In this document: positions 1 through 57,582 of the stretch, in pieces
How the letters are laid out: each line of letters begins with the position of its first letter
Position numbering within the stretch: the stretch's first letter is position 1
DNA from: Mobula hypostoma
Lineage: Eukaryota
Assembly: GCF_963921235.1 (NCBI RefSeq)
Contig: NC_086097.1
Coordinates: 65,846,001-65,910,000, forward strand
Direction: 5' to 3'
Length of the DNA: 64,000 bases
Program-made: the position numbers and the translations under genes
Notes under the pieces: generated by a model
Told to the model about the DNA's origin: nothing
The model's input: the letters and a program-made list of their open reading frames with translations, nothing else
Database searches by the model: none

Positions 1-2
1 TA

Positions 3-1685
3 GTTCCCACACCCCGCACTTCCCGTTTCTACCTCCTACCCAAGATCCACAAACCTGCCTGTCCTGGCCGACCTATTGTCTCAGCTTGCTCCTGCCCCAC
101 CGAACTCGTTTCTGCATACCTCGAAACTGTTTTATCACCCCTTGTTCAATCCCTTCCGACCTATGTTCGTGACACTTCTCACGCTCTTAAACTTTTCGAT
201 GATTTTAAGTTCCCTGGCCCCCACCGCTTTATTTTCACCATGGATGTCCAGTCCTTATATACTTCCATCCCCCATCAGGAAGGTCTCAAAGCTCTACGCT
301 TCTTTTTGGATTCCAGACCTAATCAGTTCCCCTCTACCACCACTCTGCTCCGTCTAGCGGAATTAGTCCTTACTCTTAATAATTTCTCCTTTTGCTCCTC
401 CCATTTCCTCCAAACTAAAGGTGTAGCTATGGGCACCCGTATGGGTCCTAGCTATGACTGCCTTTTTGTTGGGTTTGTGGTACAATCTATGTTCCGTGCC
501 TATTCTGGTATCTGTCCCCCACTTTTCCTTCGCTATATCGACGACTGCATTGGCGCTGCTTCCTGCACGCATGCAGAACTCGTTGACTTTATTAACTTTG
601 CCTCCAACTTTCACCCTCAAGTTTACCTGGTCTATTTCCGACACCTCCCTCCCCTTCTAGATCTTTCTGTCTCTGTCTCTGGAGACAGCTTATCCACTCA
701 TGTCTACTATAAGCCTACTGACTCTCACAGCTATCTGGACTATTCCTCTTCTCACCCTGTCTCTTGCAAAAACGCCATCCCCTTCTCGCAATTCCTCTGT
801 CTCCGCCGCATCTGCTCTCAGGATGAGGCTTTTCATTCTAGGACGAGGGAGATGTCTTCATTTTTTAAAGAAAGGGGCTTCCCTTCCTCCACTATCAACT
901 CTGCTCTTAAACGCATCTCCTCCATTTCACGTACATCTGCTCTCACTCCATCCTCCCACCACCCCACTAGGAATAGGGTTCCCCTGGTCCTCACCTACCA
1001 CCCCACCAGCCTCCGGGCCCAACATATTATTCTCCGTAACTTCCGCCACTTCCAACGGGATCCCACCACTAAGCACATCTTTCCCTCCCCGCCTCTCTCT
1101 GCATTCCGCAGGGATCGCTCCCTACACAACTCCCTTGTCCATTCGTCCACCCCATCCCTCCCCACTGATCTCCCTCCTGGCACTTATCCGTGTAAGCGGA
1201 ACAAGTGCTACACATGCCCTTACACTTCCTCCCTTACCACCATTCAGGGCCCCAAACAGTCCTTCCAGGTGAGGCATCACTTCACCTGTGAGTCGACTGG
1301 GGTGATATACTGCGTCCGGTGCTCCCGATGTGGCCTTTTATATATTGGTGAGACCCGACGCAGACTGGGAGACCGCTTTGCTGAACATCTACGCTCTGTC
1401 CGCCAGAGAAAGCAGGATCTCCCAGTGGCCACACATTTTAATTCCACATCCCATTCCCATTCTGACATGTCTATCCACGGCCTCCTCTACTGTAAAGATG
1501 AAGCCACACTCAGGTTGGAGGAACAACACCTTATATTCCGTCTGGGTAGCCTCCAACCTGATGGCATGAACATTGACTTCTCTAACTTCCGCTGGGCCCC
1601 ACCTCCCCCTCGTACCCCAGCTGTTACTCATTTTTATGCACACATTCTTTCTCTCACTCTCCTTTTTCTCCCTCTGTCCCTCTGA
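3..1685 (+). CDS. PLE RT-endonuclease ORF, partial (open from the window start)
   Basis: ORF 240..1685 extends in frame to position 3. Relative to copy 2 it has a 5-bp deletion (~615) and a 1-bp deletion (~655) that together restore the frame but scramble about 13 aa. Confidence 0.85.
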   Translation, partial: VPTPRTSRFYLLPKIHKPACPGRPIVSACSCPTELVSAYLETVLSPLVQSLPTYVRDTSHALKLFDDFKFPGPHRFIFTMDVQSLYTSIPHQEGLKALRFFLDSRPNQFPSTTTLLRLAELVLTLNNFSFCSSHFLQTKGVAMGTRMGPSYDCLFVGFVVQSMFRAYSGICPPLFLRYIDDCIGAASCTHAELVDFINFASNFHPQVYLVYFRHLPPLLDLSVSVSGDSLSTHVYYKPTDSHSYLDYSSSHPVSCKNAIPFSQFLCLRRICSQDEAFHSRTREMSSFFKERGFPSSTINSALKRISSISRTSALTPSSHHPTRNRVPLVLTYHPTSLRAQHIILRNFRHFQRDPTTKHIFPSPPLSAFRRDRSLHNSLVHSSTPSLPTDLPPGTYPCKRNKCYTCPYTSSLTTIQGPKQSFQVRHHFTCESTGVIYCVRCSRCGLLYIGETRRRLGDRFAEHLRSVRQRKQDLPVATHFNSTSHSHSDMSIHGLLYCKDEATLRLEEQHLIFRLGSLQPDGMNIDFSNFRWAPPPPRTPAVTHFYAHILSLTLLFLPLSL

Positions 1686-1883
1686 ATATACCTCTTGCCC
1701 ATCCTCTGGGTCACCCCCCCCCCGTCTTTCTTCCCGGACCTCCTGTCCCATGATCCTCTCGTATCCCCTTTTGCCTATCACCTGTCCAGCTCTCGGCTCT
1801 ATCCCTCCCCCTCCTGTCTTCTCCTATCATTTTGCATCTCCCCCTCCCCCTCCAGCTTTCAAATCCCTTACTCACTCTTCCTT

Positions 1884-1925
1884 CAGTTAGTCCTGACGAA
1901 GGGTCTCGGCCTGAAACGTCGACTG
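1884..1925 (+). ncRNA. Minimal type I hammerhead ribozyme
   Basis: agtc-CTGACGA-agggtctcggcct-GAAAC-GTC-gact. Intact CUGAnGA/GAAA core, stem I agtc/gact, short stem II, palindromic ACGT stem III. Predicted cleavage after GUC at 1920. Confidence 0.85.
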
Positions 1926-2058
1926 CGCCTCTTCCTATAGATGCTGCTTGGCCTGCTGCGTTCACCAGCAACTTTGATGTATGTTGCTTGAATTTCCAGC
2001 ATCTGCAGAATTCCTGTTGTTTGCGTTTAAATTCACTACTGCGAAGCCTCTTCCGGTG

Positions 2059-5000
2059 ATGCCTACACCGAAGAAGTTTAGATCCTCTCTTCGACGGGAG
2101 TTCAGTGAAACCATCTCTCACTGCTCCCCATCTGTAATTTCTTCGGCTCTTCAACTTTTCGACCACACTTTGACTCAAACTCGCTATCACAGCCATGTAT
2201 CCTTTCTTGGAACGTGCCTCCGTCGCCAACTTACTCCAGTTGGCTTTAGGATTCGTTTCCAAGCCTCTCAATTTGGACCTTCTGAGGATCCCAGGTACTC
2301 ACATTTTATTGACTCTGCCTCTCGCCGCTTCTCCCGTCAAGCTCTGAAGGTGACGCTCTCCGCCATGAGGAGGTACTTGGTGTCCCTATCCCAGACCCTT
2401 CCACACCTTCGGGACACTTTCTTCGCCGTCTGTAATGGTCCTACCCGGTATTTCATCCTCCGTCGGATCCACGCCTGCAATCGCCGTTTTTTTGACTTTG
2501 TCATGTTAGGCAAAGATCGCAAGATCTTACATATACGGACTCCAGAGCCTGCCGGCCCCGACGCTAGCAGGCATGAACTTTCAATTGCGGCCCCTGCCAT
2601 TGATCTCGGCGGCTCCAACACCTCAGGGCATATTCAAAACCCGGACTCCAGCAACGACCATGGACACCTTCACAGCGATTGCACAACCACCAACTGCGAC
2701 TCCAGCCTTGAACTCCAGGCCGGGTCTTTATGTGCTGCTGTTGTGACTCCCGTCTCCCCTTCCCCCAACAACACTCCGCAGCCCCGTCTTCCTCAGATCC
2801 CACCGTCAGCTCCTGGGCCCTCAGAGGCTCCATCTTCCTCTCACCCCAACCCTCCCCTCTCCACTGACACCCCCAGCCTCCCCCCTCCCCCCTCTGATCC
2901 CAGCTCTCATCCGTGCTGGGTCTTTACCATCCCCTCCGACCTTCAACTGTCGGAGGCAGAACGCTCTGTTCTCAGTAAGGGCCTCACGTTTGTCCCCCTT
3001 CGCCCACACCTCAGCGAGTTCTGTGTTCGCCACGATGCGGAACTTTTCTTCCGCCGTCTCCGTCTCCGAGCCTACTTCTTCGGCAAGGACTCTTCCACCC
3101 CCACCGATGACCCCTTCTCCCGTCTTCAACCCTCCTCTTCTTCATGGACACCCCGCTCTGGTCTTCTGCCTGCTCTGGATCTCTTTATTGCCAACTGCCG
3201 ACGGGACATCAACCGTCTCGACTTCACCGCACCTTGTCCCCATTCCAACCTCACTCCTTCGGAACGCTCTGCTCTCCACTCCCTCCGCACTAATCCTAAC
3301 CTTATTATTAAACCCGCTGATAAAGGGGGTGCTGTTGTAGTCTGGCGTACTGACCTCTACCTTGCCGAGGCACAGCGACAACTCGCGGATACCTCCTCTT
3401 ATTTACCCCTCGATCGTGACCCCACCAAGGAGCACCAGGGCATTGTCTCCCACACTATCAACGACTTTATCCGCTCAGGGGATCTCCCATCCACTGCTAC
3501 CAACCTTATAGTTCCCACACCCCGCACTTCCCGTTTCTACCGCCTACCCAAGATCCGCAAACCTGCCTGTCCTGGCCGACCTATTGTCTCAGCTTGCTCC
3601 TGCCCCACCGAACTCGTTTCTGCATACCTCGACACTGTTTTATCACCCCTTGTTCAATCCCTTCCGACCTATGTTCGTGACACTTCTCACGCTCTTAAAC
3701 TTTTCGATGATTTTAAGTTCCCTGGCCCCCACCGCTTTATTTTCACCATGGATGTCCAGTCCTTATATACTTCCATCCCCCATCAGGAAGGTCTCAAAGC
3801 TCTACGCTTCTTTTTGGATTCCAGACCTAATCAGTTCCCCTCTACCACCACTCTGCTCCGTCTAGCGGAATTAGTCCTTACTCTTAATAATTTCTCCTTT
3901 TGCTCCTCCCATTTCCTCCAAACTAAAGGTGTAGCTATGGGCACCCGTATGGGTCCTAGCTATGCCTGCCTTTTTGTTGGGTTTGTGGAACAATCTATGT
4001 TCCGTGCCTATTCTGGTATCTGTCCCCCACTTTTCCTTCGCTATATCGACGACTGCATTGGCGCTGCTTCCTGCACGCATGCAGAACTCGTTGACTTTAT
4101 TAACTTTGCCTCCAACTTTCACCCTGCCCTCAAGTTTACCTGGTCTATTTCCGACACCTCCCTCCCCTTTCTAGATCTTTCTGTCTCTGTCTCTGGAGAC
4201 AGCTTATCCACTGATGTCTACTATAAGCCTACTGACTCTCACAGCTATCTGGACTATTCCTCTTCTCACCCTGTCTCTTGCAAAAACGCCATCCCCTTCT
4301 CGCAATTCCTCCGTCTCCGCCGCATCTGCTCTCAGGATGAGGCTTTTCATTCTAGGACGAGGGATATGTCTTCATTTTTTTAAAGAAAGGGGCTTCCCTT
4401 CCTCCACTATCAACTCTGCTCTTAAACGCATCTCCTCCATTTCACGTACATCTGCTCTCACTCCATCCTCCCACCACCCCACTAGGAATAGGGTTCCCCT
4501 GGTCCTCACCTACCACCCCACCAGCCTCCGGGTCCAACATATTATTCTCCGTAACTTCCGCCACCTCCAACGGGATCCCACCACTAAGCACATCTTTCCC
4601 TCCCCCCCCTCTCTCTGCATTTCGCAGGGATCGCTCCCTACACAACTCCCTTGTCCATTCGTCCCCCCCATCCCTCCCCACTGATCTCCCTCCTGGCACT
4701 TATCCGTGTAAGCGGAACAAGTGCTACACATGCCCTTACACTTCCTCCCTTACCACCATTCAGGGCCCCAAACAGTCCTTCCAGATGAGGCATCACTTCA
4801 CCTGTGAGTCGACTGGGGTGATATACTGCGTCCGGTGCTCCCGATGTGGCCTTTTATATATTGGTGAGACCCGACGCAGACTGGGAGACCGCTTTGCTGA
4901 ACATCTACGCTCTGTCCGCCAGAGAAAGCAGGATCTCCCAGTGGCCACACATTTTAATTCCACATCCCATTCCCATTCTGACATGTCTATCCACGGCCTC

Positions 5001-5201
5001 CTCTACTGTAAAGATGAAGCCACACTCAGGTTGGAGGAACAACACCTTATATTCCGTCTGGGTAGCCTCCAACCTGATGGCATGAACATTGACTTCTCTA
5101 ACTTCCGCTGGGCCCCACCTCCCCCTCGTACCCCAGCTGTTACTCATTTTTATGCACACATTCTTTCTCTCACTCTCCTTTTTCTCCCTCTGTCCCTCTG
5201 A
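2059..5201 (+). pseudogene. Full-length PLE polyprotein (~1050 aa) with two +1 homopolymer frameshifts
   Basis: Probable start ATG at 2059 (MPTPKKF). Frameshifts at T7 (~4375-4381; T6 in copy 1) and C8 (~4602-4609). ORF pieces 1981..4383, 4214..4684 and 4785..5201 tile the protein. Confidence 0.9.
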
Positions 5202-5399
5202 ATATACCTCTTGCCCATCCTCTGGGTCACCCCCCCCCCGTCTTTCTTCCCGGACCTCCTGTCCCATGATCCTCTCGTATCCCCTTTTGCCTATCACCTG
5301 TCCAGCTCTCGGCTCTATCCCTCCCCCTCCTGTCTTCTCCTATCATTTTGCATCTCCCCCTCCCCCTCCAGCTTTCAAATCCCTTACTCACTCTTCCTT

Positions 5400-5441
5400 C
5401 AGTTAGTCCTGACGAAGGGTCTCGGCCTGAAACGTCGACTG
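5400..5441 (+). ncRNA. Minimal hammerhead ribozyme
   Basis: Identical to 1884-1925. Predicted cleavage after 5436. Confidence 0.85.
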
Positions 5442-5502
5442 CGCCTCTTCCTATAGATGCTGCTTGGCCTGCTGCGTTCACCAGCAACTTTGATGTATGT
5501 TG

Positions 5503-7296: not shown

Positions 7297-8173
7297 ATAC
7301 GTCATCTTCAGAAGTTTTCGGATGACTCTGCCATAGTTGGATGCATCAGCAAGGGAGATGAGGCTGAGTACAGGGCTACGGTCGGAAACTTCGTCACATG
7401 GTGTGAGCAGAATTATCTGCAGCTTAATGTGAAAAAGACGAAGGAGCTGGTAGTAGACCTGAGGAGAGCTAAGGTAACAGTGACCCCTGTTTCCATCTAG
7501 GGAGTCAGGGTGGACATGATGGAGGATTACAAATACCTGGGGATACGAATTGACAATAAACTGGACTGGTCAAAGAACACTGAGGCTATCTACAAGAAGG
7601 GTCAGAGCCGTCTCTATTTCCTGAGGAGACTGAGGTCCTTTAACATCTGCCAGACAATGCTGAGGATGTTCTACGAGTCTGTGGTGGCCAGTGCTATCAT
7701 GTTTGCTGTTGTGTGCTGGGGCAGCAGGCTGAGGGTAGCAGACACCGACAGAATCAACAAACTCATTCGTAAGGCCAGTGATGTTGTGGGGATGGAAATG
7801 GACTCTCTGACGGTGGTGTCTGTAAAGAGGATGCTGTCTAAGTTGCATGCCATCTTGGTCAATGTCTCCCATCCACTACATAATGTACTGGTTGGGCACA
7901 AGAGTACATTCAGCCAGAAACTCATTCCACCGAGATGCAGCACAGAGCGTCATAGGAAGTCATTCCTGCCTGTGGCCATCAAACTTTACATCTCCTCCTT
8001 TGGAGGGTAAGACACCCTGAGCCAATAGGCTGGTCCTGGACTTATTCATAATTTACTGGCGTAATTTACATATTACTATTTAACTATTTATGGTTCTATT
8101 ACTATTTATTATTTATGGTGCAACTGTAACGAAAACCGATTTCCCCCAGGATCAATAAAGTATGACTATGACT
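7297..8173 (+). mobile_element. 5'-truncated Rex1/Babar-like LINE
   Basis: QKFSDDSAIVG, LQLNVKKTKELVVD, YKYLG, RLYFLRRLRSF, FYESVVASAI, then an aataaag(tatgac)n tail. One in-frame stop at 7498-7500. Confidence 0.85.
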
Positions 8174-8425: not shown

Positions 8426-10034
8426 CATAAACAAGAGAAAGTCTGCAGATGCTGGAAATCTGAGCAACACACACAAAATGCTGGAGGAACTCAGCAGGCC
8501 AGGCAGCATCTATGGAGCAAAGTACAGTTGATGTCTCGGGCCAAAACCCTTCGCAGGACTGGAGAAAAAAAGCTGAGGAGTAGATTTGAAAAGTGGGGGG
8601 CGGAGAGGGAAAAGCCAGGTGAGAGGTGAAACTTGGAGGGGGAGGGATGGAGCAAAGAGCTTGGAAGTTGATTGGTAAAAGAGCCAGTAGGCCATGGATG
8701 AAAGTAGAAAGGGTGGGGGAGGAGCACCAGAGGGGAGCAATGGACGGGCAAGGAGATAACATGAGAGGGGGACAAGGGGATGGCAAATGGTGAAAGGAGG
8801 AAGTGGAGGCATTACTGGAAGTTTGAGAAATCGATGTTCATGCCATCAGATTGGAGGCTACCCAAACAGAATATAAGGTGTTGTTCCTCCAACCTAAATG
8901 TAGCCTTATCCCAACAGTGCAGTAGGCCATGAATGGACGTATCGGAATGACAATGGGCAGTGCATTAAAATGGGTGGCCACTGGGTGATCCCGTCTGTTC
9001 TGGCGGACAGAGCATAGATGCTTGGTGAAGCGGTCTCCCAATCTACAAATGTTTGTACGTCATGTCGCACCAATATCAAAGGGCATCAAAGGGTATTGGG
9101 TGAAAGCAGGAGAGTGGGGATGACTGGAAGAATTGGATTAGCCCATGATTGAATGGCAGAGCAGACTCGACGGGCCAAATGGCCTACTCCTCCGATATCT
9201 TATGGTCTTATGATATACAAGAGGCCATACTGGGAGCACAAACACAGTATATAACCCCAACAGATTCACAGGTGAAGTGTCACTTCACCTGGGAAGGACT
9301 GTTTGGGGTCCTGAATGGTAGTGAGGGAGGAGGTGTAGGAACAGGTGAAGCACTTGTTCCTCTTGTAAGGATAAGTGCCAGGAGGGAGATAATTGGAGAG
9401 AGACAAATGGACAAAATCTGCTCTCAGGATGAGGCTTTTCATTCTCGAACAGAGGAGGTGTCCTCCTTTTTCAAAGAAAGACGCTTCCCTTCCTCCACCA
9501 TCAACACTGCTCTCAACCACACCTCTTCCATTTCACACACATCTGCTCTTACCCCATCCTACCAGGGATAGGGTTCCTCCTGTCCTCAATTACCACCCCA
9601 CCAGCCTCCGCGTCCAGCACATAATTCTCTGAAACTTCCGCCTCCTCCAACTGGATCCCACCACCAAGCCCATCTTTCCCTCCCCACCACTTTCTGCTTT
9701 CCGCAGGGATTGCTCCCTGAGCGACTCCCTTGTCCTTTCGTCCCTCTCCACCAGCCATCACCTCCCTGTGGTGCTCCTCCCCCATTCTTTCTTCTTTTTT
9801 CCATGGCCTTGTGTCTCTTTCACCAATCAACTTCCTAGCTCTTTGCTTCATCCCTCCCCCTCCAAGTTTCACCTATCACCTGAGGTTTCTCTCTTCCCTT
9901 CCCTCCACCTTTCTAATCTATTCCTCTGCTTTTTTGCTTCAGTCCTGCCAAGGGGTTTCAGCCCAAAACGTTGACTGTACTTTTTTTCAATAGATGCTGC
10001 CTGGCCTGCTGAGTTCCTCCAGCATTTTGTGTGT
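8426..10034. mobile_element. Older PLE insertion with inverted arms (minus arm ~8426-9413, plus arm ~9414-10034)
   Basis: The minus strand encodes the GIY-YIG C-terminus and 3' region. The plus strand starts at ICSQDEAFHSRT. Degenerate hammerheads at ~8525-8560 (-) and ~9940-9977 (+). Candidate TSD atagct at 8420-8425 and 10035-10040. Confidence 0.8.
9075..9213 (+). mobile_element. CR1 3' tail inserted in the PLE arm
   Basis: agggcatcaaaggg...gagcagactcga...cttatggtcttatg matches the CR1 terminus at 14030-14163. Confidence 0.8.
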
Positions 10035-10179
10035 ATAGCTAGTTAATACTGGTTTCTTAGGTGAAAGGAAGGGAAATAATAATCCAAAATAGAGAAATCA
10101 TTTTAAGTTGTAATTTTGTTTTGCCCTCCCATGGCCACCAAATATATCCCATCTTACTGTTTTTAAAGAAGTGGCTGCA

Positions 10180-11247: not shown

Positions 11248-14076
11248 GTGAAATCAAAGCAAAAAGTATCAAATACTGGTCTTAAGGTGTTGTACTTAAA
11301 TGCATGCAGCACAAGGAATAAGGTGGATGATCTTGTTGTACAGCTACAGATTAGCAGGTATGATATTGTGGCCATCACTGAGACCTGGCTAAAGGATGCA
11401 TGTCTCTGGGAGCTGAACGTCCAAGGTAACATGGTGTATCGGAAGGATAGGAAGGTAGGCAGAAGGGGAGGCGTGGCTTTATTGGTAAGAAATGATATTA
11501 AGTCATTAGAAAGAGGTGATATAAGATCGGAAGGTGCAGAATCTTTATGGGTTGAGCTAAGAAATAGCAGGGGTAAAAGGACCCTGATGGCAGTTATTTA
11601 TAGGCCTCCAAACAGCTGCAGGGATGTGGACTACAAATTACAACTAGAAATAGAAAAGGCTTGTCAGAAGGGCAGTGTTATGATAATTGTGGGGGATTTT
11701 AACATGCGAGTAGATTGGGAAAATCAGGTCAGCACTGGATCTCAAGAGAGAGAATTTGTAGAATGTCTGCGAGATGGCTTTTTAGAACAGCTTGTTGTTG
11801 AGCATACTAGGGGATCGGCTGTACTGGATTGGGTATTGTGTAATGAACCGGAGGTGATTAGAGAGATTGAGGTGAAGGAACCCTTAGGAGACAGTGATCA
11901 TAACATGATTGAGTTCGCTGTGAAATTAGAAACAGAGAAGCTGAAATCTGCTGTGTTGGTATTTCAGTGGAGTAAAGAAAATTACAGTGGCATGAGAGAG
12001 GAACTGACCAAAGTTGACTGGAAAGGGACACTGGTGGGAAAGACAGCAGAGCAGCAGTGGCTGGAGTTTATGCAAGAAATGAGGAATGTGCAAGACAGGT
12101 ATATTCCAAAAACGAAGAAATTTTCGACTGGAAACAGGATGCAACCGTGGTTGACAAGAGAAGTCAAAGCCAAAGTTAAAGCAAAGGAGAGGGCATACAA
12201 GGAAGCAAAAATTAGTGGGAAGACAGAGGATTGGGAAGTTTTTAAAACCTTACAAAAGGAAACCAAGAAGGTCATTAAGAGAGAAAAGATTAACTATGAA
12301 AGGAACCTAGCAAATAATATCAAAGAGGATACTAAAAGCTTTTTCAAGTATATAAAGAGTAAAAGACAGGTGAGAGTAGATATAGGACTGATAGAAAATG
12401 ATGCTGGAGAAATTGTAATGGGAGATAAGGAGATGGCAGAGAAACTGAACGAGTATTTTGCATCATTCTTCACTGAGGAAGACATCAGCAGTATACCGGA
12501 CACTCAAGGGTGGCAGGGAAGAGAAGTGTGCGCAGTCACAATTACGACAGAGAAAGTACTCAGGGAGCTGAATAGGCTAAAGGTAGATAAATCTCCTGGA
12601 CCAGATGGAATGCACCCTCGTGTTCTGAAGGAAGTAGCTGTGGAGATTACGGAGGCATTAGCAATGATCTTTCAACAGTCGATAGATTCTGGCATGGTTC
12701 CGGAAGACTGGAAGATTGAAAATGTCACTCCACTATTTAAGAAGGGAGCAAGGAAGCAAAAAGGAAATTATAGACCTGTTAGCTTGACATCGGTGGTTGG
12801 GAAGTTGTTGGAGTCGATTGTCAAGGATGAGGTTACAGAGTACCTGGAGGCATATGACAAGATAGGCAGAACTCAGCATGGGTTCCTTAAAGGAAAATCT
12901 TGCCTGACAAACCTATTACAATTTTTTGAGGAAATTCCCAGTAGGCTAGACAAGAGAGATGCAGTGGATGTTGTATATTTGGATTTTTAGAAGGCCTTTG
13001 ACAAGGTGCCACACATGAGGCTACTTAACAAGATAAGAGCCCATGGAATTACAGGAAAGTTACATACGTGGATAAAGCGTTGGCTGATTGGCAGGAAACA
13101 GAGAGTGGGAATAAAGGGATCCTATTCTGGTTGGCTGCCAGTTACCAGTGGTGTTCCACAGGGATCAGTGTTGGGGCCGCTTCTTTTTACATTGTACATC
13201 AACGATTTGGATTATGGAATAGATGGCTTTGTGGCTAAGTTTGCTGACGATACGAAGATAGGTGGAGGGGCCGGTAGTGCTGAGGAAACGGAGGGTATGC
13301 AGAGAGACTTGGATAGATTGGAAGAATGGGCAGAGAAGTGGCAAATGAAATACAATGTTGGAAAGTGTATGGTTATGCACTTTGGCAGAAAAAATAAACG
13401 GGCAGACTATTATTTAAATGGGGAAAGAATTCAAAGTTCTGAGATGCAACGGGACTTGGGAGTCCTCATACAGGATACCCTTAAAGTTAACCTCCAGGTT
13501 GAGTCAGTAGTGAAGAAGGCGAATGCAATGTTGGCATTCATTTCTAGAGGAATAGAGTATAGGAGCAGGGATGTGATGTTGAGGCTGTATAAGGCGCTGG
13601 TGAGACCTCACTTGGAGTACTGTGGGCAGTTTTGGTCTCCTTATTTAAGAAAGGATGTACTGAAGTTGGAGAGGGTACAGAGAAGATTCACTAGAAGGAT
13701 TCCGGGAATGAGAGGGTTAACATATGAGGAACGTTTGTCCACTCTTGGACTGTATTCCTTGGAGTTTAGAAGAATGAGGGGAGACCTCATAGAAACATTT
13801 CGAATGTTAAAAGGCATGGACAGAGTGGATGTGGCAAAGTTGTTTCCCATGATGGGGAAGTCTAGTACGAGAGGGCATGACTTAAGGATTGAAGGGTGCC
13901 TATTCAGAACAGAATTGCGAAGAAATTTTTTTAGTCAGAGGGTGGTGAATCTATGGAATTTGTTGCCACGGGCAGCAGTGGAGAAGTCATTGGGTGTATT
14001 TAAGGCAGAGATTGATAGGTATCTGAGTAGCCAGGGCATCAAAGGTTATGGTGAGAAGGCGGGGCAGTGGGACTAA
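11248..14076 (+). pseudogene. CR1 ORF2 (APE endonuclease + RT)
   Basis: [56 protein letters not shown] single in-frame TAG at 12988-12990 lies in LDF*KAFD. Confidence 0.93.
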
Positions 14077-17536: not shown

Positions 17537-20500
17537 TCAAATTAAATGATAATATTTGGCAAAAGAGCCCCACCTTCTCATAAAATCAAATCAGGGATCA
17601 AAAGTTCTACTTCTAATTTTTTCCAAACTAAGACATAACATTACTTGGGAAAATCATTGAATTAGTGTAGGAGCAGAAGTATCTTTCCACTTCAATAAAA
17701 TAGCCCTTCTTGCCAACAGTGTAATGAATGCAATTACATGTTGGTTTGAAAATGAAATACCCTGAATATGATGCGGATCTATTCCAAATAGAACAGTCAA
17801 TGTATTAGGTTGTAAATTAATTTTCAAAGCTTTAGAAATTGTAGAAAATAAAGATTTCCAAAAAGATTTCAATGAGGGACATGACCAGAACATATGTGAC
17901 AAAGTAGCTACTTCATTTTTACACCTATCACAATAATTGTCTATATTAGGAAATATTTTGGATAGCCTCTCCTTTGTTAAATAATGACGGTGAACAATTT
18001 TAAATTGAATTAAACAATGATTGGCACATATCGAAGAAGAATTAACCATTTTCAGAACTCGCAACCAATCTTCGTTAACAGAAGTCATATTAAGTTCTCT
18101 CTCCTAATCTTGTTTAATCTTTAGTGAGAGGTTATCTTTTTGTAGTAAAAATAAATTATAAATTCTACCAACGGAACCTCTCACTAAAGGATTCATATTC
18201 AAAATAGTATCCAACAAATCAGATTCTTGCATATATGGAAACGTAGAAACATATTTTTGTAAAAAATGTCTAACCTGAAAATATTGCAAGAAATGTTTGT
18301 GAGAGAGAGAATATTTGCTAATTAACTCTTCAAAAGTCATCAATCGACCATCACTAAATAAATCTGCAAAAGAATAGATCCCCTTATTTCGCCATAAAAG
18401 AGAAATGGGATCAGTAATTGAAGGTTGAAATAGCAAATTTCGAAATACGGGGCTGGACAATTTAAATTGTTTAAAATTAAAAGAGTTGAGAAACTGAAAA
18501 CAAATCCGTAAGGACTGTTTAATAACAGGGTAGAGATTTAAATTGGGAATTTTAGCAAGTCGTAAAGGTAATGGTGCACCTAATAATGAAGTTAAATGAA
18601 ATTGTTTAATAGCTTTTAATTCCAAATCAATCCAAGCTGGTTTTTGGCTCTTATCGAGCCAATATACCCAAAAACATAGTTGTCGAATATTAACAGCCCA
18701 ATAATACAACCTTAAATTAGGTAGCGCAAGTCCACCATTTTTTTTAGATTTTTGTAAATGAAACTTATTAACTCTTGGTTTTTTATTATTCCAAATAAAG
18801 GACAAAATAGTAGAATCAATTTGATCAAAAAAAATTTTAGTTAGAAAAATAGGTATACTTTGAAAAATATATAAAAATCTAGGTAAAATCATAATTTTCA
18901 CGGCATAAATACGACCTATTAAAGAAAGTGTAAGGGGATTCCATCTAGAAAATAATTGCTTCATAGAGTCCAATAAAGGAACTACATTAGCTTTATAAAG
19001 AGCTTTATATTTTTTTGTAAAGTTAATACCCAAATATTTTAAAGAATTCACAAGTCTAAATGGAATATCATTATATATAAAAACAGGAACATTTAAAGGG
19101 AACAATTCACTTTTGTTTAAATTAAGTTTATATCCTAAAAATTTTCCAAAATCATTTAATAATTCCAAAAGATCAGGAATAGATTCTTCAGGATTCGAAA
19201 TATAAACCAAAAGATCATTTGCATAAAGAGAGATCTTATGTATGGTCCCATTTATAGAAATACCATGAAGGTTTTTAGCTTCACGAATTGTTATAGCCAA
19301 AGGCTCCAGTACAAGATAAAATAATAAAGGACTTAATGGACACCCTTGTCAAGTACCTCGTGAAAGTGAAAAAAAGGGAGACCTAAGATTATTAGTAATA
19401 ATGGTAGTGATAGGGTTCTTACAGATCATTTGAATCCACTTATTGAAATTATTACCAAAGCCAACTTTCTCTAATACATTAAACAAATAAGTCTATTCAA
19501 CTCTATTAAATGCCTTTTCTGCATCCAGAGAAATAACACATTGGGGTGTTTTAGATAATGGTGAATATATAATGTTCATCAATCTCCGAACATTAGAAAA
19601 AGAATAACGGCCTCTAATAAAGCCTGTTTGATCCGTAGAGATAATTTTAGATAAAACGTTTTCCAAATGGTTAGCCATTATCTTAGAAAGAATTTTAGAT
19701 TCCACATTTAATAACAAAATAGGTCTACAAGATGATTCAGTAGGATCTTTATCTAGTCATAGTCATAGTCATAGTCATACTTCATTAATCCCGGGGGAAA
19801 TTGGTTTTCGTTACAATTGCTCCATAAATAATAAATAGTAATAGAACCATAAATAGTTAAATAGTAATATATAAATTATGCCAGTAAATTATGAAATAAG
19901 TCCAGGACCAGCCTATTGGCTCAGGATGTCTGACCCTCCAAGGGAGGAGTTGTAAAGTTTGATGGCCACAGGCAGGAATGACTTCCTATGACGCTCAGTG
20001 CTGCATCTCAGTGGAATGAGTCTCTGGCTGAATGTACTCCTGTGCCCACCCAGTACATTATGTAGTGGATGGGAGACATTGACCAAGATGGCATGCAACT
20101 TAGACAGCATCCTCTTTTCAGACACCACCCTGAGAGAGTCCAGTTCCATCCCCACAACATCAATGGCCTTATGAATGAGTTTGTTCATTCTGTTGGTGTC
20201 TACCACCCTCAGTCTGCTGCCCCAGCACACAACAGCAAACGTGATAGCACTGGCCACCACAGACTCGTAGAACATCCTCAGCATTGTCTGGCAGATGTTA
20301 AAGGACCTCAGTCTCCTCAGGAAATAAAGACGGCTCTGACCCTTCTTGTAGACAGCCTCAGTGTTCTTTGACCAGTCCAGTTTATCGTCAATTCGTATCC
20401 CCAGGTATTTGTAATCCTCCACCATGTCCACACTGACCCCCTGGATGGAAACAGGGGTCACCGGTACCTTAGCTCTCCTCAGTCTACCACCAGCTCCTTA

Positions 20501-45294: not shown

Positions 45295-47125
45295 CCAACG
45301 CGATTGTTCTAAACACTGGTGCTCCACAAGGCTGCGTCCTCAGCCCCCTACTCTACTCTCTCTACACTCACGAATGTGTGACCAGATTCTGCTCCAACAT
45401 CTAAAAGTTCACAGATGATACCTCTGTAGTGGGCCACATCTCAAGAAATGATGAGTCAGAGTACAGGAAGGAGATAGAGGGCTTAGTGACTTGGTGTCAT
45501 GATAACAACATTTCCCTCAATGTCAATAAAACAAAAGAGCTGGTCATTGACTTTAGAAAGGACACAATGCACATGCAGTATCAACAGTATTGAGGTGTCA
45601 ACATTACCTATAGCCTCTCCTAGTCCAATCAGATTGATACCGAGTCAAGAAAGCTTACCAGTGCTTCTACTTCCTCAGGCATCTAAAGAAATTTGGCATG
45701 TCCTTATAAACTCTTATCAATTTTTGTTGATGCACCATAGAAAGCTTGGTATGGTAACTGCTCTACACTTCACTGCAAGAAACTGCAGAGTTGTGGGCAC
45801 GGATCAGCACATCATGGGAACCAGCTTCTCTAAGGTTCCTCTTGTCCTCACCTATCACCCCATCAGCCTCCATGTCCAGCACATAATTCTTTGGAACTTA
45901 CGCCATCTCCAACAGGATCCCACCACCAAGCACATCTTTCCTCCCTGCCCACACTTTCTGCTTTCCACAGAGATCGTACCCTATGCGACTCACTTGTCCA
46001 TTCATCTCTCCTCACTGATCTCCCTCCTGGCACTTACCCTTACAAGCAGGACAAGTGCTGTACCTGTCTCTACACCACCTCCCTCACTACCATTCAGGGC
46101 CCCAAACAGTCCTTCCAGGTGAAGCAAAACTTCACCTGTGAATCCATTGGAGTCATATACTGTGTTTGGTGCCTCCTGTACATCGGTGATACCTGACATA
46201 GATTGGGAGACTGCTTCGCCAAGCAACTACGCTCTGCTCGCCAGAAGAAGCGGGATCTCCCAGTGGCCACTGTTTAATCCCACATCCCATTCCCATCCTG
46301 ATATATAACTCCATGGCTTCCTCTACAGTCACAACAAGACCACACTCAGTTGGAGGAACAACACCTTATATTCTGTCTGGGTAACCTCCAACCTAATGGC
46401 ATCAACATTGATTTCTCAAACTTTGGGTAATGGCCCCACTTCTGCCCCCTCTTCACCATTCCTCATCTCCTTTTCCCTCTCTCACTTATCTCCTTTCCTG
46501 CCCATCGCCTCCTTCTAGTGCTCCTCCCCACTTTTCTGTCCTCTATTAGACTCCCTCTTCTCCAGCCCTGTATCTCTTTCACCAATCAACTTCCCAGCTC
46601 TTTACATCATCCCTGCCCTCCTGGTTTCACCTATCACCTGTGTTTCTCTCCCCCACCCCCACCTTTTAACTCTATTCCTCACCTATTTTTCTCCAGTCCT
46701 GCAGAAGGGTCTCTGCCCGAAATGTCGATTGTACTCTTTTCCATAGATGCTGCCTGGCCTGCTGAGTTCCTCCAGCATTTTGTATATCTTGCTGTAAGGA
46801 CTTTGTCGATACTGCTCACTGTCTCAGTAAAAGAACCAACATAATCAAAGATACCACCCACCCTGGACTTTCACTCTTCTCCCCTGTCCCACTAGGGAAC
46901 TGAAAGCATGTTCCATCAGGCTCAAGGACAGCTTCTATCCCACTGTTGTCAGACTCTTGAATGGACCTCTTGTATGATAAGATGGACTCTTGGCCTCACA
47001 GTCTACCTTGTTATGATCTTGCACTTTATCATTTTCCTGCACTGCAATTTTTGGTAGCTTTTACACCTTATTCTGCATTGTTACTGTTTTACCATATTCT
47101 ATCAGTGTAATGACTTGATCTGTAT
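45295..47125 (+). mobile_element. Degraded Rex1/Babar-like LINE interrupted by a PLE
   Basis: NTGAPQGCVLSPLLYSLYTHECV, KFTDD, KTKELVIDFRK. Resumes after 46795. Confidence 0.75.
45831..46794 (+). mobile_element. Older 5'-truncated PLE
   Basis: VPLVLTYHP, QGPKQSFQV, LYIGDT, and a degenerate hammerhead at ~46693-46731. Confidence 0.85.
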
Positions 47126-49838: not shown

Positions 49839-49946
49839 TGTAGATGGTTGGAGGAGGAGCTACATCTTTTGAAAGAGCAGAACCAGTCATTGGCTAATAA
49901 CACAAGACAGCTGAGTACTGAAAACAATCAAGAATGTGCCTTGAAG
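49839..49946 (+). CDS. MIPOL1: Internal coding exon of MIPOL1 (mirror-image polydactyly 1, coiled-coil protein)
   Basis: Acceptor ttgtttgtag and donor aag|gtaaat, 108 bp, phase 0-0. CRWLEEELHLLKEQNQSLANNTRQLSTENNQECALK aligns without gaps to the human MIPOL1 segment as I recall it (CKRLEQELHHVKEQNQTSANNMRHLTAENNQERALK). Confidence 0.85.
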
Positions 49947-51041
49947 GTAAATCTTTTGCACACTCTGAGTGAAGTTTGGGTTAACCCACAGGTGTCATCC
50001 TGTCCTTTTGATATCTATTGTTTACATTTCAGCACTAGTACATTTGTCAACAGCCTCTTCTTTAAACAAGGAGTGCAGTACGTTTTTTGGGGGTTTTCAT
50101 GTCCCCTAAAAATTTTTTATAGAATGTTAAATTGGAAAATAGATTAAACTTCACAGTGTCAACATCTGATCAATCTTTTGATATCTTTTCTAGGTATATA
50201 TTTTGTGATTATTTTGAATTAAACATTGTATTCAAATACCAGAACGTTCAAATTTAACTTCATTGTTTAACAGATGCTAATTTTATAATTAGCATCCATT
50301 TTCTAAAATTTATGCTTTTTTGTGTAGTGACTTGGCATTGATGCACTGATACATATGGTCATAAGGTGAACTGAAGAATTAAAAATTCTGGAGCTCTAAA
50401 AACAACCTCTTCCTGGTTTTATCTGGAGTATAAAACCAGATACTTGAAGTATAGCTACTATTTGAAGCAAAAGCTACTATTCACTCACTGGAAACAATAC
50501 ATGTTTTTGCACAAAAATAATTTAACGATTTATAGATCGGACTGACCTCTACCTTGTTGAGAGCAGGAGGCAGTCTCAGACAAAGGAGATGCTATTGTAG
50601 TGTGGTGCACTGACCTCTACTTTGCTGAGACCAGGCAGCACTCTCAGACACCTCCTCATACCTATCCCCTGAAGAAGAGCCCCACTCCAAACCATCAGAA
50701 AACTGTCTCCGACACCATCACCGACTGCATCAACTCTGGGGAGCTCCCATCCACTGCCAGCAAACTCATAGCTTCCTTATCCTGCACTGCTTACTTCTAC
50801 CCCTTGCTCAAGATCCACAAACCTGACTGTCCGGGTAGGCCTATCGTCTCTGCCTGCTTCTGACCCACTGAACTTGTGTTCTCATAGCTCAACTCCCATT
50901 CTATCCCCCTTGGTTCAGCCCCTTCCCACCTACCTCCACAAAACTTCTCATGCTCTTGATCTCCTCACTTCAAATTTTAGCAACATACATCAAAGTTGCT
51001 GGTGAACACAGCAGGCCAAGCAGCATCTATAGGAAGAGGCG

Positions 51042-51083
51042 CAGTCGACGTTTCAGGCCGAGACCCTTCGTCAGGACTAACTG
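51042..51083 (-). ncRNA. Minimal hammerhead ribozyme
   Basis: Reverse complement is identical to 1884-1925. Confidence 0.85.
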
Positions 51084-52091
51084 AAGGAAGAGTGAGTAAG
51101 GGATTTGAAAGCTGGAGGGGGAGGGGGAGATGCAAAATGATAGGAGAAGACAGGAGGGGGAGGGATAGAGCCGAGAGCTGGACAGGTGATAGGCAAAAGG
51201 GGATACGAGAGGATCATGGGACAGGAGGCCTAGGGAGAAAGACGGGGGGGGGGGTGACCCAGAGGATGGGCAAGAGGTATATTCAGAGGGACAGAGGGAG
51301 AAAAAGGAGAGTGAGAGAAAGAATGTGTGCATAAAAATGAGTAACAGCTGGGGTACGAGGGGGAGGTGGGGCCTAGCGGAAGTTAGAGAAGTCAATGTTC
51401 ATGCCATCAGGTTGGAGGCTACCCAGACGGAATATAAGGTGTTGTTCCTCCAACCTGAGTGTGGCTTCATCTTTACAGTAGAGGAGGCCGTGGATAGACA
51501 TGTCAGAATGGGAATGGGATGTGGAATTAAAATGTGTGGCCACTGGGAGATCCTGCTTTCTCTGGCGGACAGAGCGTAGATGTTCAGCAAAGCGGTCTCC
51601 CTCTGTCCGCCAGAGAAAGCAGGATCTCCCAGTGGCCACACATTTTAATTCCACATCCCATTCCCATTCTGACATGTCTATCCACGGCCTCCTCTACTGT
51701 AAAGATGAAGCCACACTCAGGTTGGAGGAACAACACCTTATATTCCGTCTGGGTAGCCTCCAACCTGATGGCATGAACATTGACTTTTCTAACTTCCGCT
51801 AGGCCCCACCTCCCCCTCGTACCCCAGCTGTTACTCCTTTTTATGCACACATTCTTTCTCTCACTCTCCTTTTTCTCCCTCTGTCCCTCTGAATATACCT
51901 CTTGCCCATCCTCTGGGACACCCCCCCCCCCGTCTTTCTCCCTAGGCCTCCTGTCCCATGATCCTCTCGTATCCCCTTTTGCCTATCACCTGTCCAGCTC
52001 TCGGCTCTATCCCTCCCCCTCCTGTCTTCTCCTATCATTTTGCATCTCCCCCTCCCCCTCCAGCTTTCAAATCCCTTACTCACTCTTCCTT

Positions 52092-52133
52092 CAGTTAGTC
52101 CTGACGAAGGGTCTTGGCCTGAAACGTCGACTG
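52092..52133 (+). ncRNA. Minimal hammerhead ribozyme
   Basis: Same as 1884-1925 with one C>T in the stem II loop; core intact. Confidence 0.85.
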
Positions 52134-52554
52134 CGCCTCTTCCTATAGATGCTGCTTGGCCTGCTGCGTTCACCAGCAACTTTGATGTATGTTGCTTGAA
52201 TTTCCAGCATCTGCAGAATTCCTGTTGTTCACTTCAAATTTTATTTTTATTCTTATTATATTCTTATTTTCACCATGGATGTCCAGTCCCTATATACTTC
52301 TATCCTCCATCAAGAAGGCCTTAAAACTCTCCACTTCTTTCTCAATAAAATAACCAACCAATTCCTCTCTATCACCACCCTCCTCAGTCTGACAGACTGA
52401 TCCTCTCCTCAGCAACATTTCCTTCGGCTCTTCTTACTTTCTCCAGGGTCCTAGATATGCCAGCCTCTTCGTTTGCTATGTACAACAGTCCATGTTCCAA
52501 GCTTTCCTCAGAAATACCCCCCAACTTTGCCTTCAACTTCCACCCTGCCCTTAA

Positions 52555-53092: not shown

Positions 53093-54310
53093 AATTTCAC
53101 TTGGTCCATTTGTGACATCTCCCTCTTCTTTCTTGATTTCTCTGTCTCCATTTCTGGAGAAAAACTGTTGACCGACATCTTTTATAAACATACTGATTCT
53201 CATGGTTATCTTGGCTATACCTTCTCCCACCCTATCTCCTGTAAAAATGCTAATCCCTTTTCTCAGTTTCTTCGCCTCCACGGCATCTGTTCCCAGGACG
53301 CGGCTTTCCATTCCAGGACATCAGAAGGGTTTTCCTCCCTCCACTATTGATGCTGCCTTCACCCACATCTCCTGCATTTCCCGAACATCTGCACTCGCTC
53401 ATCTTCCCGCTGCCTTAACAGCGACAGAGTTCCTCTTGTCCTTACCCCATCAGTGTCCGCATCCAACACATCATCTTTCGCCACGTCCAAAAGGATCCTA
53501 CCACTAAACATATCTTTACCTCCTCCTTCTCTCTCTGCTTTCCACAGTGATTGCTCCCACCGTGATTCCCTTGTCCATTCATCCCTCCCCATTAATCTCC
53601 ATTCTGGCACTTATCCCTGCAAGTGGCCAAAGTGCTACACATGCCCATTCACCTCCTCCCTCACTTCCATTCAGGGCCCCAAACAATCCTTCCAGGTGAG
53701 GCAACACTTTACCCGCAAGGCTGCTGGGGTGGTCTATTGTGTCCAGTGGTCTCAATGCAGCCTCCTGTACGTTGGTGAGACCCATCGTAAATTGGGGGAA
53801 CATTTCATTGAGCACCAAAAACAGAACTTCCCAGTGGCCAAACATTTTAATTCCGATTCCCATTCTCATTCCTAAATGTTGGTCCATGGCCTCCTCTCTT
53901 GTCCTAAGAGGAGGCCACCCTCAGGGTGGAGGAGCAACACCTTTTATTCCATTTGGGTTGCCTCCAATCTGATGGCATGAATATTAATTTCTTCTTCCGG
54001 TAAAAAAATAATTCCATCTCCTTCCCCTTTTCTTCTATTCCTCAGTCTGGCCCCTCTTACCTCTTCTCACCTGCCTATCATCTTCCCCAGGCCCCCTCTA
54101 CCTTTCCATTCTCCTCTGGTCCTCTCTCATCTCTTATCAGATTCCTTTCTCTCCATCCCTTTATCTTTTCAACCCACCTATAGCTTCACCTATCATCTTA
54201 TAGCTATCCTCCTTCCCCTCCCCCCACCTTTTTATTCTGGCTTCTTCCCCCTTCCTTTTCAGTCCTGAAACAGGGTGTCCCCTGAAACGTCAACTGTTTA
54301 TTGATTTCTG

Positions 54311-54655
54311 TAAGATATAGGCACAGAATTAGGCCATTTAGCCCATCAAGTCTGCTCCACTATTTCATTATGCTGATCTATTTTTCCTCCCAATCTCCTG
54401 CCTTCTCCCTGTATCCTTTCATGCCCTGACCAATCAAGAATCTATCAACTTCTGCCTTAAATGTACATAAAGTCGTAGCCTGTGGAAATGAATTCTGTAG
54501 ATTCACCATTTTCTAACTGAAGAAATTTGCCCTCATCTCCATTCTAAAAGGACACTAGGACACTATTCTGAGGCTGTGTCCCCTGGCCCTAGACTCTCCC
54601 ACCCTAGGAAATATCTGCTCCACATCCACTCTATCAGGCTTTTTGACATTTGATT
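54311..54655 (-). mobile_element. CR1 3' fragment inside the old PLE 3' region
   Basis: DRVDVEQIFPRVGESRARGHSLRI on the minus strand. Confidence 0.75.
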
Positions 54656-57582
54656 TATTTCCATAGATGCTGACTGACCTGCTGAGTTCCTCCAGCATTT
54701 TGTGTGAGTTGCTTTGGATCTCGAGTATCTGCACACTCTCTTCTATGTACAAGTATTTATTTAGCACTTTTAACACAACAAAACATTCTTTACAGGAAAT
54801 TTGAATCAGAACTGTATATGGCAATACTAGGCACTTGAACAAGACTGTCAGAGAAAGGTTGAAAGATCAATCTCAAAAAAACAAATAGTAAAAAAGATTT
54901 AGGAGCACTTGTTGGTAATAGGAAGGAAAGAGATTTGAGAGAAAGTGATGCAAGTCCATGGAAATTTGAAAATAATTATGGCTACTTAATCTGGAAGGTC
55001 AATGAGTACAGGAATGAGGGATGAATGCAATTAGGTGTAGGTTAGAAAATAGCAGTAGTTTTAGATGGTAGAGTTTAAGGAGCATGAGTGGCCAGCATGA
55101 TTACTTTGTAATTTTAATTACAGCAAGGGCACAGAAATGAGCTTCAAGACCAAATGATCTTTTGCTTTTGTGGAGATGGACTTTCACGATGTTGGACTCT
55201 AAATGTGTGGCCAGAACTTATTTCAAGGTCTAATATGACGCAGTGATTCTGAACATCACTTGTGAATAAAAGAATGGAGCTGATGGCTATGGCAAATATT
55301 TGTGGCCAGGACCAGAGCAAAAAACTTTGGTATTTCCAATATTTATGAGGGGAAAATATATGCTTATTCTGAATTTTACTCCAAAGCTAGTGGTTTCTTC
55401 AAGAGAGGTAATGATGAAATGAAGCTGAATATTATCGGTATTCATAAGGACACTGGTGTATTTTCAGATGATGTCAGTGAAGAGTTGCATGAAAATGAGA
55501 AATAAGAAGAGGTTAAAGATATTTTTCCAAGACTGCCAGGGTACTGATCAGTTTTGTTACCCCAAAAATAGGCATTTATTATGTGACTCTATAGTAAAAC
55601 CATAACACACTTGGATTTTCAGGTTTAGCAGAGGCATAAAGAAAATTCATAGAAGCACAGAAAGCTAACTTGTATTCACCAGACTCCAAGTATTCCAAGC
55701 AAGCTAATTCCGATATAAGCATCACACTTGTAACAGATTTCAAGTTGAATATAAGTTGCTAATGTTTTCGTATCCTATGGCTCACCGTGGCTTCTCACAG
55801 ATTCCTGCATTAAAAAAATGCAGAGCTATGAGTGAGTTATTCTGGTGTTTATTGTAATACACGATTGATTGTAATACTGTCAAAAGGGTTTTATCTGTTT
55901 ATTTTTTCTCTACCCTGCATAAGTGTATTCTCAAGTGCTCCTGGATTCTCTTTTGAATTGCTAGTAGATTTTGAGGTCAATCTGGTTAAGCAAAATAAAA
56001 TTACTTCTTAAAGCTACTGCCTCAAACCTATTATAATAAACATTGTACTTGCATTCTCACCTCTACAGCTGTCAGTTCAATTTATGATTGGTTGATGTTT
56101 GTGATGGCACATTTAATTGGAATCAGTGACCCTTATACTATAATTCTCCTGAGTCCCTTCTTCCAAATTAATGCTGCCGCTCTGTCGAAAAACTGATATT
56201 TGTTTGCTGCATACTGGTCTTTTTAGTACTGTCCTGGGTCCAGATTTATGCTATAAATTTTATTCAGTGGTGTGCACGATAGTTCCATTTTTGCAATTGC
56301 ATTTTCATAGGAACATGCATTTTTTGTTTTAAAAAAGGATGCAAAGGAAAACTGAAAAAGCTGAGTACAGTACTTTTTGAATAACTTTATTCATTATATG
56401 TACATCAAAACATCAAAGCTTTCAGTGAAATGCATCGTTTGCACAATGAAGATTGTGTTGCACAGCTCACAAGTGTTGCCGTGCTTCTGGTACCAACATA
56501 GCATGCCCACAACTCACCAGATCTAACTGCATAGTCTTTGGACTATGGGAGGAAACCAGAGGAAATGGAAGAAACCTATCTTGCACTACGCTACTGCCAC
56601 AAAACAATAAAATTTAATGATGCAGGTCAGTGATAATAAACCTGATTCTGATTCAGTAGCTTGAGTCTGCATTCTGAGAAGTTCTTGGTTAGGCATCTCA
56701 GTCCAGACTAGATGAGAGAAAGCAAACTGTGAGAGCCAGTGTCAGAGCAGGGAGAGAAATGAGAATCAGGATCATTCTGTGCAGAAACTCAGCTCTGTTT
56801 CACATCTTTTCCAGTTATGTAATAATACTACTTTCAGAACAACACTGCAATTCCTAGTGTGATCTGATTAAGGCTCTATACATCTTTCACAAACAGTAAC
56901 AACTTTGTTTTTCTGATCTATTCACAGAGAGATAAAGCACACAAATGGGCCTTTCACCTCAACAAGTCCACATCATGTCAACCAGTCATTTTACAATAAT
57001 CCTATGCTTAATAACATTTTTATTGCCTCTCTGTTCTATTCAACTTTCCCCAGGTTCTTTTACTCACCAAGATACTATGGGAAATTTACAGTGGCTAATT
57101 AATCTACCAACTGACACATTTGGAACATGACAGGAAATCAGAACATCCAAGGTCAGAATAGAACTCAAATCTCCAAGACAGCAGCTAAACGGGGTTATTG
57201 AAGCATTGGAAAAGTAGAAGCAGTTTGGATCAGGTGAACCCCTTGAGTATGAGGAATGCAGGAAATCAGTAGGGTAAAAAGACGACATGAGATATTTTAG
57301 CCAGATAAAATAAAGGAGATTCTTAAAGAGATTCTATAAGTATTCTAAGAACAATAGTGTAACCTGAGGGAAAGTAGTTCCTACTTAAGGATTGGTGTGA
57401 TCATCTATGTGTGAAACCATAGGAAATGGGTGAGGTCTTAAATGAATCCTTCTTATCTGTATTTACCATGGAAAAGGTCATGGATGCTTGGTAATTCAGG
57501 GGTAAGGACAGTGCTGACTTAAAACATATTACTGAACAGAAGGTGTTGGGAGTCTTGATATCTATAACTATAAAGATAGATA

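Follow-up and report, generated by a model that had tools for sequence, protein, structure and literature searches.

The window, a 64-kb stretch of DNA, holds a decaying partial-tandem insertion of a young Penelope-like retrotransposon (PLE) of Neptune type in a ray-like cartilaginous fish host. The arrangement is a known one, and no new kind of element is involved; the locus represents a young vertebrate family that bears on how PLE tandem arrays form and on the role of their hammerheads. The explanation that we think probable, taken as a whole, combines an internal start of cDNA synthesis downstream of the hammerhead cut, an uncut RNA of more than unit length, and a latent hammerhead. It builds on the observed architecture, ORF damage, and two positions of the 3' ends.

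Identity and coding regions of the tandem units

The upstream copy, unit 1 (1..2058, forward strand), has its 5' part outside the window and contains the RT core, thumb, Cys linker, GIY-YIG endonuclease (EN), 3'UTR, hammerhead, and tail. Domain searches of this unit gave RVT_1 at E 1.4e-4 and GIY-YIG at E 4.7e-4, both below the Pfam cut-offs. The linker CKRNKCYTC (1191..1217, +) has the CX2-5CxxC form of the Neptune/Nematis type, which occurs in Neptune and Nematis and is absent from Poseidon according to PMC8557442. The GIY-YIG core GVIYCVRCSRCGLLYIG, which together with two His positions of the CCHH motif spans 1299..1442 (+), was matched by eye to printed alignment rows; the motif is present with two Cys between GIY and YIG (GVIYCVRCSRCGLLYIG plus EHL and HFN, also by eye). 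Across the DKG block of the RT, about 50 of 96 positions agreed with the printed row of Neptune1_Ap, about 34 with anole Neptune and about 29 with PoseidonFr, counts that were made by eye, may be off by a few and have no tree behind them. The weak Pfam domains, the linker motif, and the rows compared by eye bear out the labels PLE and Neptune-type given in the original prediction; the Neptune clade itself is paraphyletic in PMC8557442. Partial tandem pseudo-LTRs, inverted copies, and an optional tail, all traits of EN+ PLEs, are present at the locus.

The closest named proteins came from Mobula and Hypanus (75-90%), followed by sharks, and a coral protein reached 52%. The RT-EN read from window positions 3-1604 is about 52% identical to this coral protein (P0027) and by eye lies nearer Neptune1_Ap than anole Neptune, a likeness that may reflect either deep paralogy or horizontal transfer. 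Two ray gene models, P0001 and P0004, named as a kinase-domain and a chitinase-domain isoform, consist almost wholly of PLE RT-EN, so these names are probably misannotations.

The RT-linker-EN coding region of unit 2 (2059..5111, +) is open to 4380 (774 aa), where an extra T in a T run at ~4375 causes a +1 shift and a stop at 4381; an extra C in a C run at ~4602 causes a second +1 shift. The claim that the hammerhead cores bracket exactly one full ORF thus stands for the full-length span and fails for the frame, which is shifted twice. Related proteins continue in one frame across both sites, and some contigs from the mapped sequencing runs are free of the extra bases; since both shifts lie in homopolymers, an assembly error is possible. 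Unit 1 has a compensated -5/-1 shift and substitutions at conserved residues, and the order RT followed by a C-terminal GIY-YIG is open in unit 1 and frameshifted in unit 2. Given the ORF damage and the substitutions at conserved residues that are private to each unit, neither has the look of an active master. An in-frame ATG at 1981, upstream of 2059, reads G in most of the mapped contig depth; it was rejected as the family start, for which ATG 2059 is the likelier candidate.

Differences between the units

Positions 1-1984 repeat 3509-5500 at 98.9% identity, which defines a head-to-tail array; the window begins inside unit 1. Of the 1986 bases that the units share, the first 1269 contain all 18 difference events and the last 717 (1270..1986 = 4786-5502, +) none. 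The probability of any gap at least that long was 0.006, or 0.03 when four homopolymer-linked events were left out. The uneven placement does not fit one event followed by even ageing. The identical stretch can be accounted for equally well by later homogenisation of the 3' part, through gene conversion or assembly polishing, and by double copying, in which about 1.2 rounds of copying on one RNA would have given a very young insertion attached to an older copy. A circle or re-priming would leave the trace of double copying. For comparison, about 590 sites of a separate inverted insertion (50980-52228) show 5 differences between its two halves.

Both tandem units read TGG at 1594 and 5110, where the other two young copies have a TAG stop, and the frame of the tandem units continues past TGG to 1685; the change sits within the identical 717 bp.

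Hammerhead motifs

Scanning the 64-kb window with the pattern CTGANGA-N8-24-GAAACGTH gave four matches (+1893, +5409, -51074, and +52101) where 0.04 were expected, and none of 100 shuffles gave four. The first two motifs (CTGACGA...GAAACGTC, at + 1893-1920 and + 5409-5436) are identical in sequence and lie 3516 bp apart, exactly as the original prediction had it for their cores. Hammerhead 1 is a minimal type-I motif (1888..1925, +). Its helix I is formed by 1888-1892/1921-1925, the core at 1893-1899 is followed by an extra A1900, and helix II (1901-1904/1909-1912) is followed by GAAA. The only remnant of helix III is the palindrome ACGT at 1916-1919, the reduction that had been described. Cleavage is predicted after C1920, 138 nt upstream of ATG 2059, which confirms the distance proposed earlier. 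Hammerhead 2 (5404..5441, +) has the same sequence, with its predicted cut after 5436.

The motif matches the descriptor CUGANGA...GAAA plus NUH with a palindromic 15.1-16.1, and together with the pattern scan this upholds the label of minimal hammerhead. The extra base after A9 is present, and helices I and II are able to form in the isolated motif. The motifs had also been called intact. This is correct for the core, all bases of which are kept, and needs qualifying for the helices. Pair 10.1-11.1 is G-U in the four young copies and one old copy and G-C in three old copies, and helix I ends in U-G in the young family versus C-G in old copies. The conserved G10.1-C11.1, an emergent trait outside the descriptor, is absent from the young motifs, whose helix II has 4 bp, two of them G-U. 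Over the eight copies, 95.8% of the cells in helices I and II were paired with no two-sided change, and covariation from so few copies is uninformative.

The original prediction had proposed a covariance-model search; no Rfam hammerhead family matched the whole window or 1840-2060 at E values up to 10, plausibly because helix III is absent. Pattern scans for additional copies in metagenome, viral, and genome contig collections returned none.

Predicted folding and cleavage

Helices I and II formed with predicted probabilities of 0.98 and 0.97 in the isolated motif and of about 0.001 in context. There, a strand at 1874..1886 (+) is predicted to pair with 1893-1904 (pair probabilities 0.82-0.93), so that the hammerhead core would be locked by an upstream hairpin. 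This anti-core strand follows a pyrimidine tract and ends in CAG, resembling a splice acceptor, and its deletion restored helices I and II in short contexts in the folding prediction. The probability that the core is unpaired in context was 0.017; in a comparison made once and post hoc, 1 of 200 flank shuffles gave a value as low, and 51 of 200 left helix I no stronger than it is here.

A double hammerhead is geometrically feasible, as swapped helices I and a 4-bp ACGU helix nest properly. Its energy was -12.9 kcal/mol, while two copies folded separately came to -25.8 and the best co-fold to -34.3, in an uncalibrated model that ignores Mg2+, tertiary contacts, and protein. Whole-strand folding was no better than in shuffles (z 0.26 and -0.55).

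One earlier study reportedly found that PLE hammerheads cleave as dimers. Published minimal hammerheads cleave slowly even as dimers, and one from Schistosoma showed low cleavage as a dimer and none as a monomer (PMC4209133). Among nine Xenopus dimers, one was cut and eight were not (bioRxiv 10.64898/2026.07.22.740005).

3' ends of the copies

The window contains eight hammerhead-bearing copies, seven of them terminal. The distance downstream from the cut to the end of the copy is about 66 nt in four of the seven (5502, 50980, and the old copies o2 and o3) and about 100 nt in the other three (52228, o1, and the ragged o4); none ends at the cut itself. At the tail-less 3' end of the array the element accordingly continues for 66 nt after the second cut (5437..5502, +), and an optional tail of about 35 nt (1987..2021, +) lies between the two preferred ends. 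As all 3' ends are downstream of the cut, a linear cut-to-cut RNA, which would lack those 66-100 nt, would not have been the template. The unit-length linear RNA of the original prediction thus fails as the source of these insertions, while an uncut multimer or a circle could supply the observed ends.

The read data were contigs of 4 of the 23 listed sequencing runs, in which starts, ends, strand, and expression cannot be read. In three of the four mapped runs, 5-15 contigs at a time depart from the element at 2022-2027, and the flanks that they enter are unlike one another (agreement 0.44-0.56). Among 22 of the 2012 loose-end rows, none was at 1921 or 5437. Depth increases across the cut site, but we do not take this as evidence of cleavage, since the increase also appears in a run marked as probably DNA and can arise from subfamily divergence upstream.

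The young insertion at 50980..52228, separate from the array, consists of two 5'-truncated copies placed head-to-head, with hammerheads at - 51074 and + 52101. It has a tail at its right end only and an AT-rich 15-bp target-site duplication (50965-50979, 52229-52243). About 27 nt separate its two arms, which repeat each other almost perfectly in inverted orientation over about 590 bp, a layout that has been explained by self-priming (PMC3846280). It is placed within an older PLE copy (50579-50957, resuming at 52264) and may lie in a host intron. An exon-like stretch between AG and GT at 49842-49948 reads WLEEELHLLKEQNQSLANNTRQLSTENNQECALK and resembles a coiled coil. Elsewhere in the window there are long ORFs of other non-LTR retrotransposons (11431-14076, 7516-8010, 19913-20425, and 18104-21201), which we take to be CR1-, Rex-, and L1-like.

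Old copies and age

The old copies o1 (8429..8560, -; tail present), o2 (9941..10040, +; no tail), o3 (46695..46793, +; no tail), and o4 (54261..54741, +; ragged tail) have damaged cores, each being without at least one core base (- 8560, + 9941, + 46695, + 54261). An insertion of about 345 bp (54310-54655) splits o4 directly after its hammerhead. Copy-by-copy comparison agreed with the statement that the four young copies keep the core and the four old ones have lost it. Young copies of different insertions diverge by 1.2-1.7% and old copies by about 15-16% from each other (alignment end artefacts excluded), and the young subfamily is 68-74% identical to the old copies in the hammerhead region. 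In a rough model of neutral drift, the probability that all four young cores are intact was 0.55-0.74 and that all four old ones are lost 0.26-0.53, so the contrast is expected from age alone, and it was rejected as evidence of selection.

Copies o1-o3 all read CTGC at the core, with C at core position 6. A triple independent origin has a probability of about 1e-4, and the copies may instead descend from a parent that spread with its core already damaged; the shared change is seen in three copies only, and in one of them a deletion is an alternative reading.

Mechanism of array formation

According to the explanation that we think probable, an active relative would have been transcribed as an RNA of more than unit length, and its RT-EN protein would have nicked AT-rich DNA. 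Synthesis of cDNA would have started at internal sites that lie about 66 or about 100 nt past the hammerhead cut, and would have copied through the uncut ribozyme. The minimal hammerhead would be latent, with its core locked by the upstream strand, cutting slowly and only as a dimer or with protein help, and the head-to-tail array would not need it. The insertion of the array fits an internal start because all seven terminal copies end downstream of the cut, and the tail at one end and the AT-rich 15-bp duplication of the inverted insertion match the layout in Fig. 2 of PMC8557442. For the one PLE tested in vitro, cleavage needed protein, ribozyme mutants still inserted, and RNA-seq showed no reads ending at the cut; two internal RT start sites define the tail of this anole element (PMC11167929). 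The DNA suggests that copies were made from uncut or rejoined RNA. Against the internal start on uncut RNA, a religated circle would yield the same 3' ends, and the identical last 717 bp would be expected from copying one RNA twice.

This circle was a possibility in the original prediction and is part of the model of PMC4209133; taken together, a read-through RNA would form a double hammerhead, be cut twice, and be ligated into a 3516-nt circle, with arrays arising when RT proceeds from the tail for more than one round. We regard it as unlikely. The circle does fit the 3' ends, the fold geometry allows the swapped helices I and the 4-bp ACGU helix, and the identity of the last 717 bp, with differences elsewhere, would be expected if 1.2 rounds of copying on one RNA had given a product joined to another copy. 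Animals do have retrozyme circles (PMC7229834), and the Schistosoma motif cleaves at a low level as a dimer but not as a monomer (PMC4209133). However, the core is predicted to be locked, the modelled dimer fold lies 13 kcal/mol above the separate folds, and the motifs are 3.5 kb apart versus about 0.3 kb in retrozymes (PMC7229834). A single rolling-circle event with even ageing would have spread the 18 differences evenly, and gene conversion or assembly polishing accounts for the identical stretch just as well. Cleavage was unnecessary in PMC11167929, and Naiads make tandems without canonical hammerheads (PMC8557442). The mechanism is already in print and still unproven: the Discussion of PMC4209133 derives head-to-tail arrays from cleavage, ligation to circles, and more-than-unit copying, and PMC6765202 repeats this model. 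Its extension to the present locus, in which a 3.5-kb circle made by the hammerheads served twice as the template for the 717 bp and the anti-core hairpin gates cleavage through splicing or the RT protein, is improbable in our judgement; if true, it would mean that the circular intermediate of an autonomous PLE has left its mark in the genome and that a PLE ribozyme has a defined switch.

It is similarly improbable that the motif of this subfamily no longer cuts and hitchhikes near the RT-binding or start region, or serves as a protein-binding structure. Both helices are weaker than in older copies, a core change is common to three old copies, eight of nine Xenopus dimers did not cleave (bioRxiv 10.64898/2026.07.22.740005), and PMC8557442 raises the idea that hammerheads merely parasitize PLEs. 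Yet the young subfamily retains every core base and both helices despite its 68-74% identity to the old copies, and the anole PLE ribozyme cleaves with protein (PMC11167929). A ribozyme gated by splicing appears more doubtful still. Here CAG 1884-1886 would be a 3' splice site and the intron would hold the anti-core strand, so unspliced RNA, the transposition template, would stay locked and spliced RNA could cut. The intron of Drosophila virilis Penelope ends at helix I (PMC4209133, PMC2377424), a pyrimidine tract ending in CAG stands at the same place in five of five distinct upstream sequences examined, and with an RNA that begins at 1887, helices I/II form with a probability of 0.26-0.98, according to how far the RNA reaches at its 3' side, instead of about 0.001. 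Yet pyrimidines make up 79% of the entire 3'UTR, so that the tract does not stand out. The nine GT sites in 1600-1860 reach at most 4 of 9, and the nearest good donor (8 of 9), at 1269, lies within the EN coding region. No GT-AG joint ending at this CAG was present among 15 of 154 joints, nor such a junction in 13 of 120 related proteins (gene models), and a literature search brought up no title about a splicing-gated PLE hammerhead.

Comparison with known systems

Literature searches for Penelope hammerheads in elasmobranchs and for shark or ray Neptune hammerheads brought up no paper or title, and published supplements may list the family; one chondrichthyan genome was sampled in bioRxiv 10.64898/2026.07.22.740005. 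The closest motifs are the minimal hammerheads of metazoan PLE pseudo-LTRs (Cervera and De la Pena 2014, PMC4209133), which were also reported in fish Neptune elements. They have the same type-I layout with helix III reduced to a palindrome, the same extra base between 9 and 10.1, and a 5-bp helix I, and likewise flank an RT-EN ORF in pairs with about 3 kb between them or form close opposite-strand pairs. The Mobula motifs differ in their 4-bp helix II with two G-U pairs, in G10.1-U11.1 instead of the conserved G-C, in the predicted upstream lock, of which we found no mention in that paper, and in their cartilaginous fish host.

Neptune EN+ PLEs such as Neptune1_Ap (PMC8557442) share the RT, the CX2-5CxxC linker, and the C-terminal GIY-YIG with CCHH, as well as the partial tandem, the inverted truncated copy, and the 30-40 bp tail at one end; here, by contrast, both units are damaged. 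The function of PLE hammerheads is called unclear in the same paper.

Non-LTR retrozymes, which are proposed to derive from PLE pseudo-LTRs, also consist of tandem units bounded by type-I hammerheads (PMC7229834; bioRxiv 10.64898/2026.07.22.740005). They are non-coding, about 0.05-1 kb long, and mostly carry canonical hammerheads, and their circles have been demonstrated, whereas the unit described here is 3516 bp long and coding, with a minimal motif, and falls outside the short non-coding class.

The Poseidon element PAc of Anolis carolinensis (PMC11167929) has the same tandem units, a hammerhead at the pLTR/ORF junction, the same two preferred 3' ends downstream of the cut, and an AT-rich target. 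It belongs to another clade. The PAc cut lies 26 nt inside the ORF and its RT starts lie within the ORF, whereas in the Mobula element the predicted cut and RT starts are both upstream of ATG 2059.
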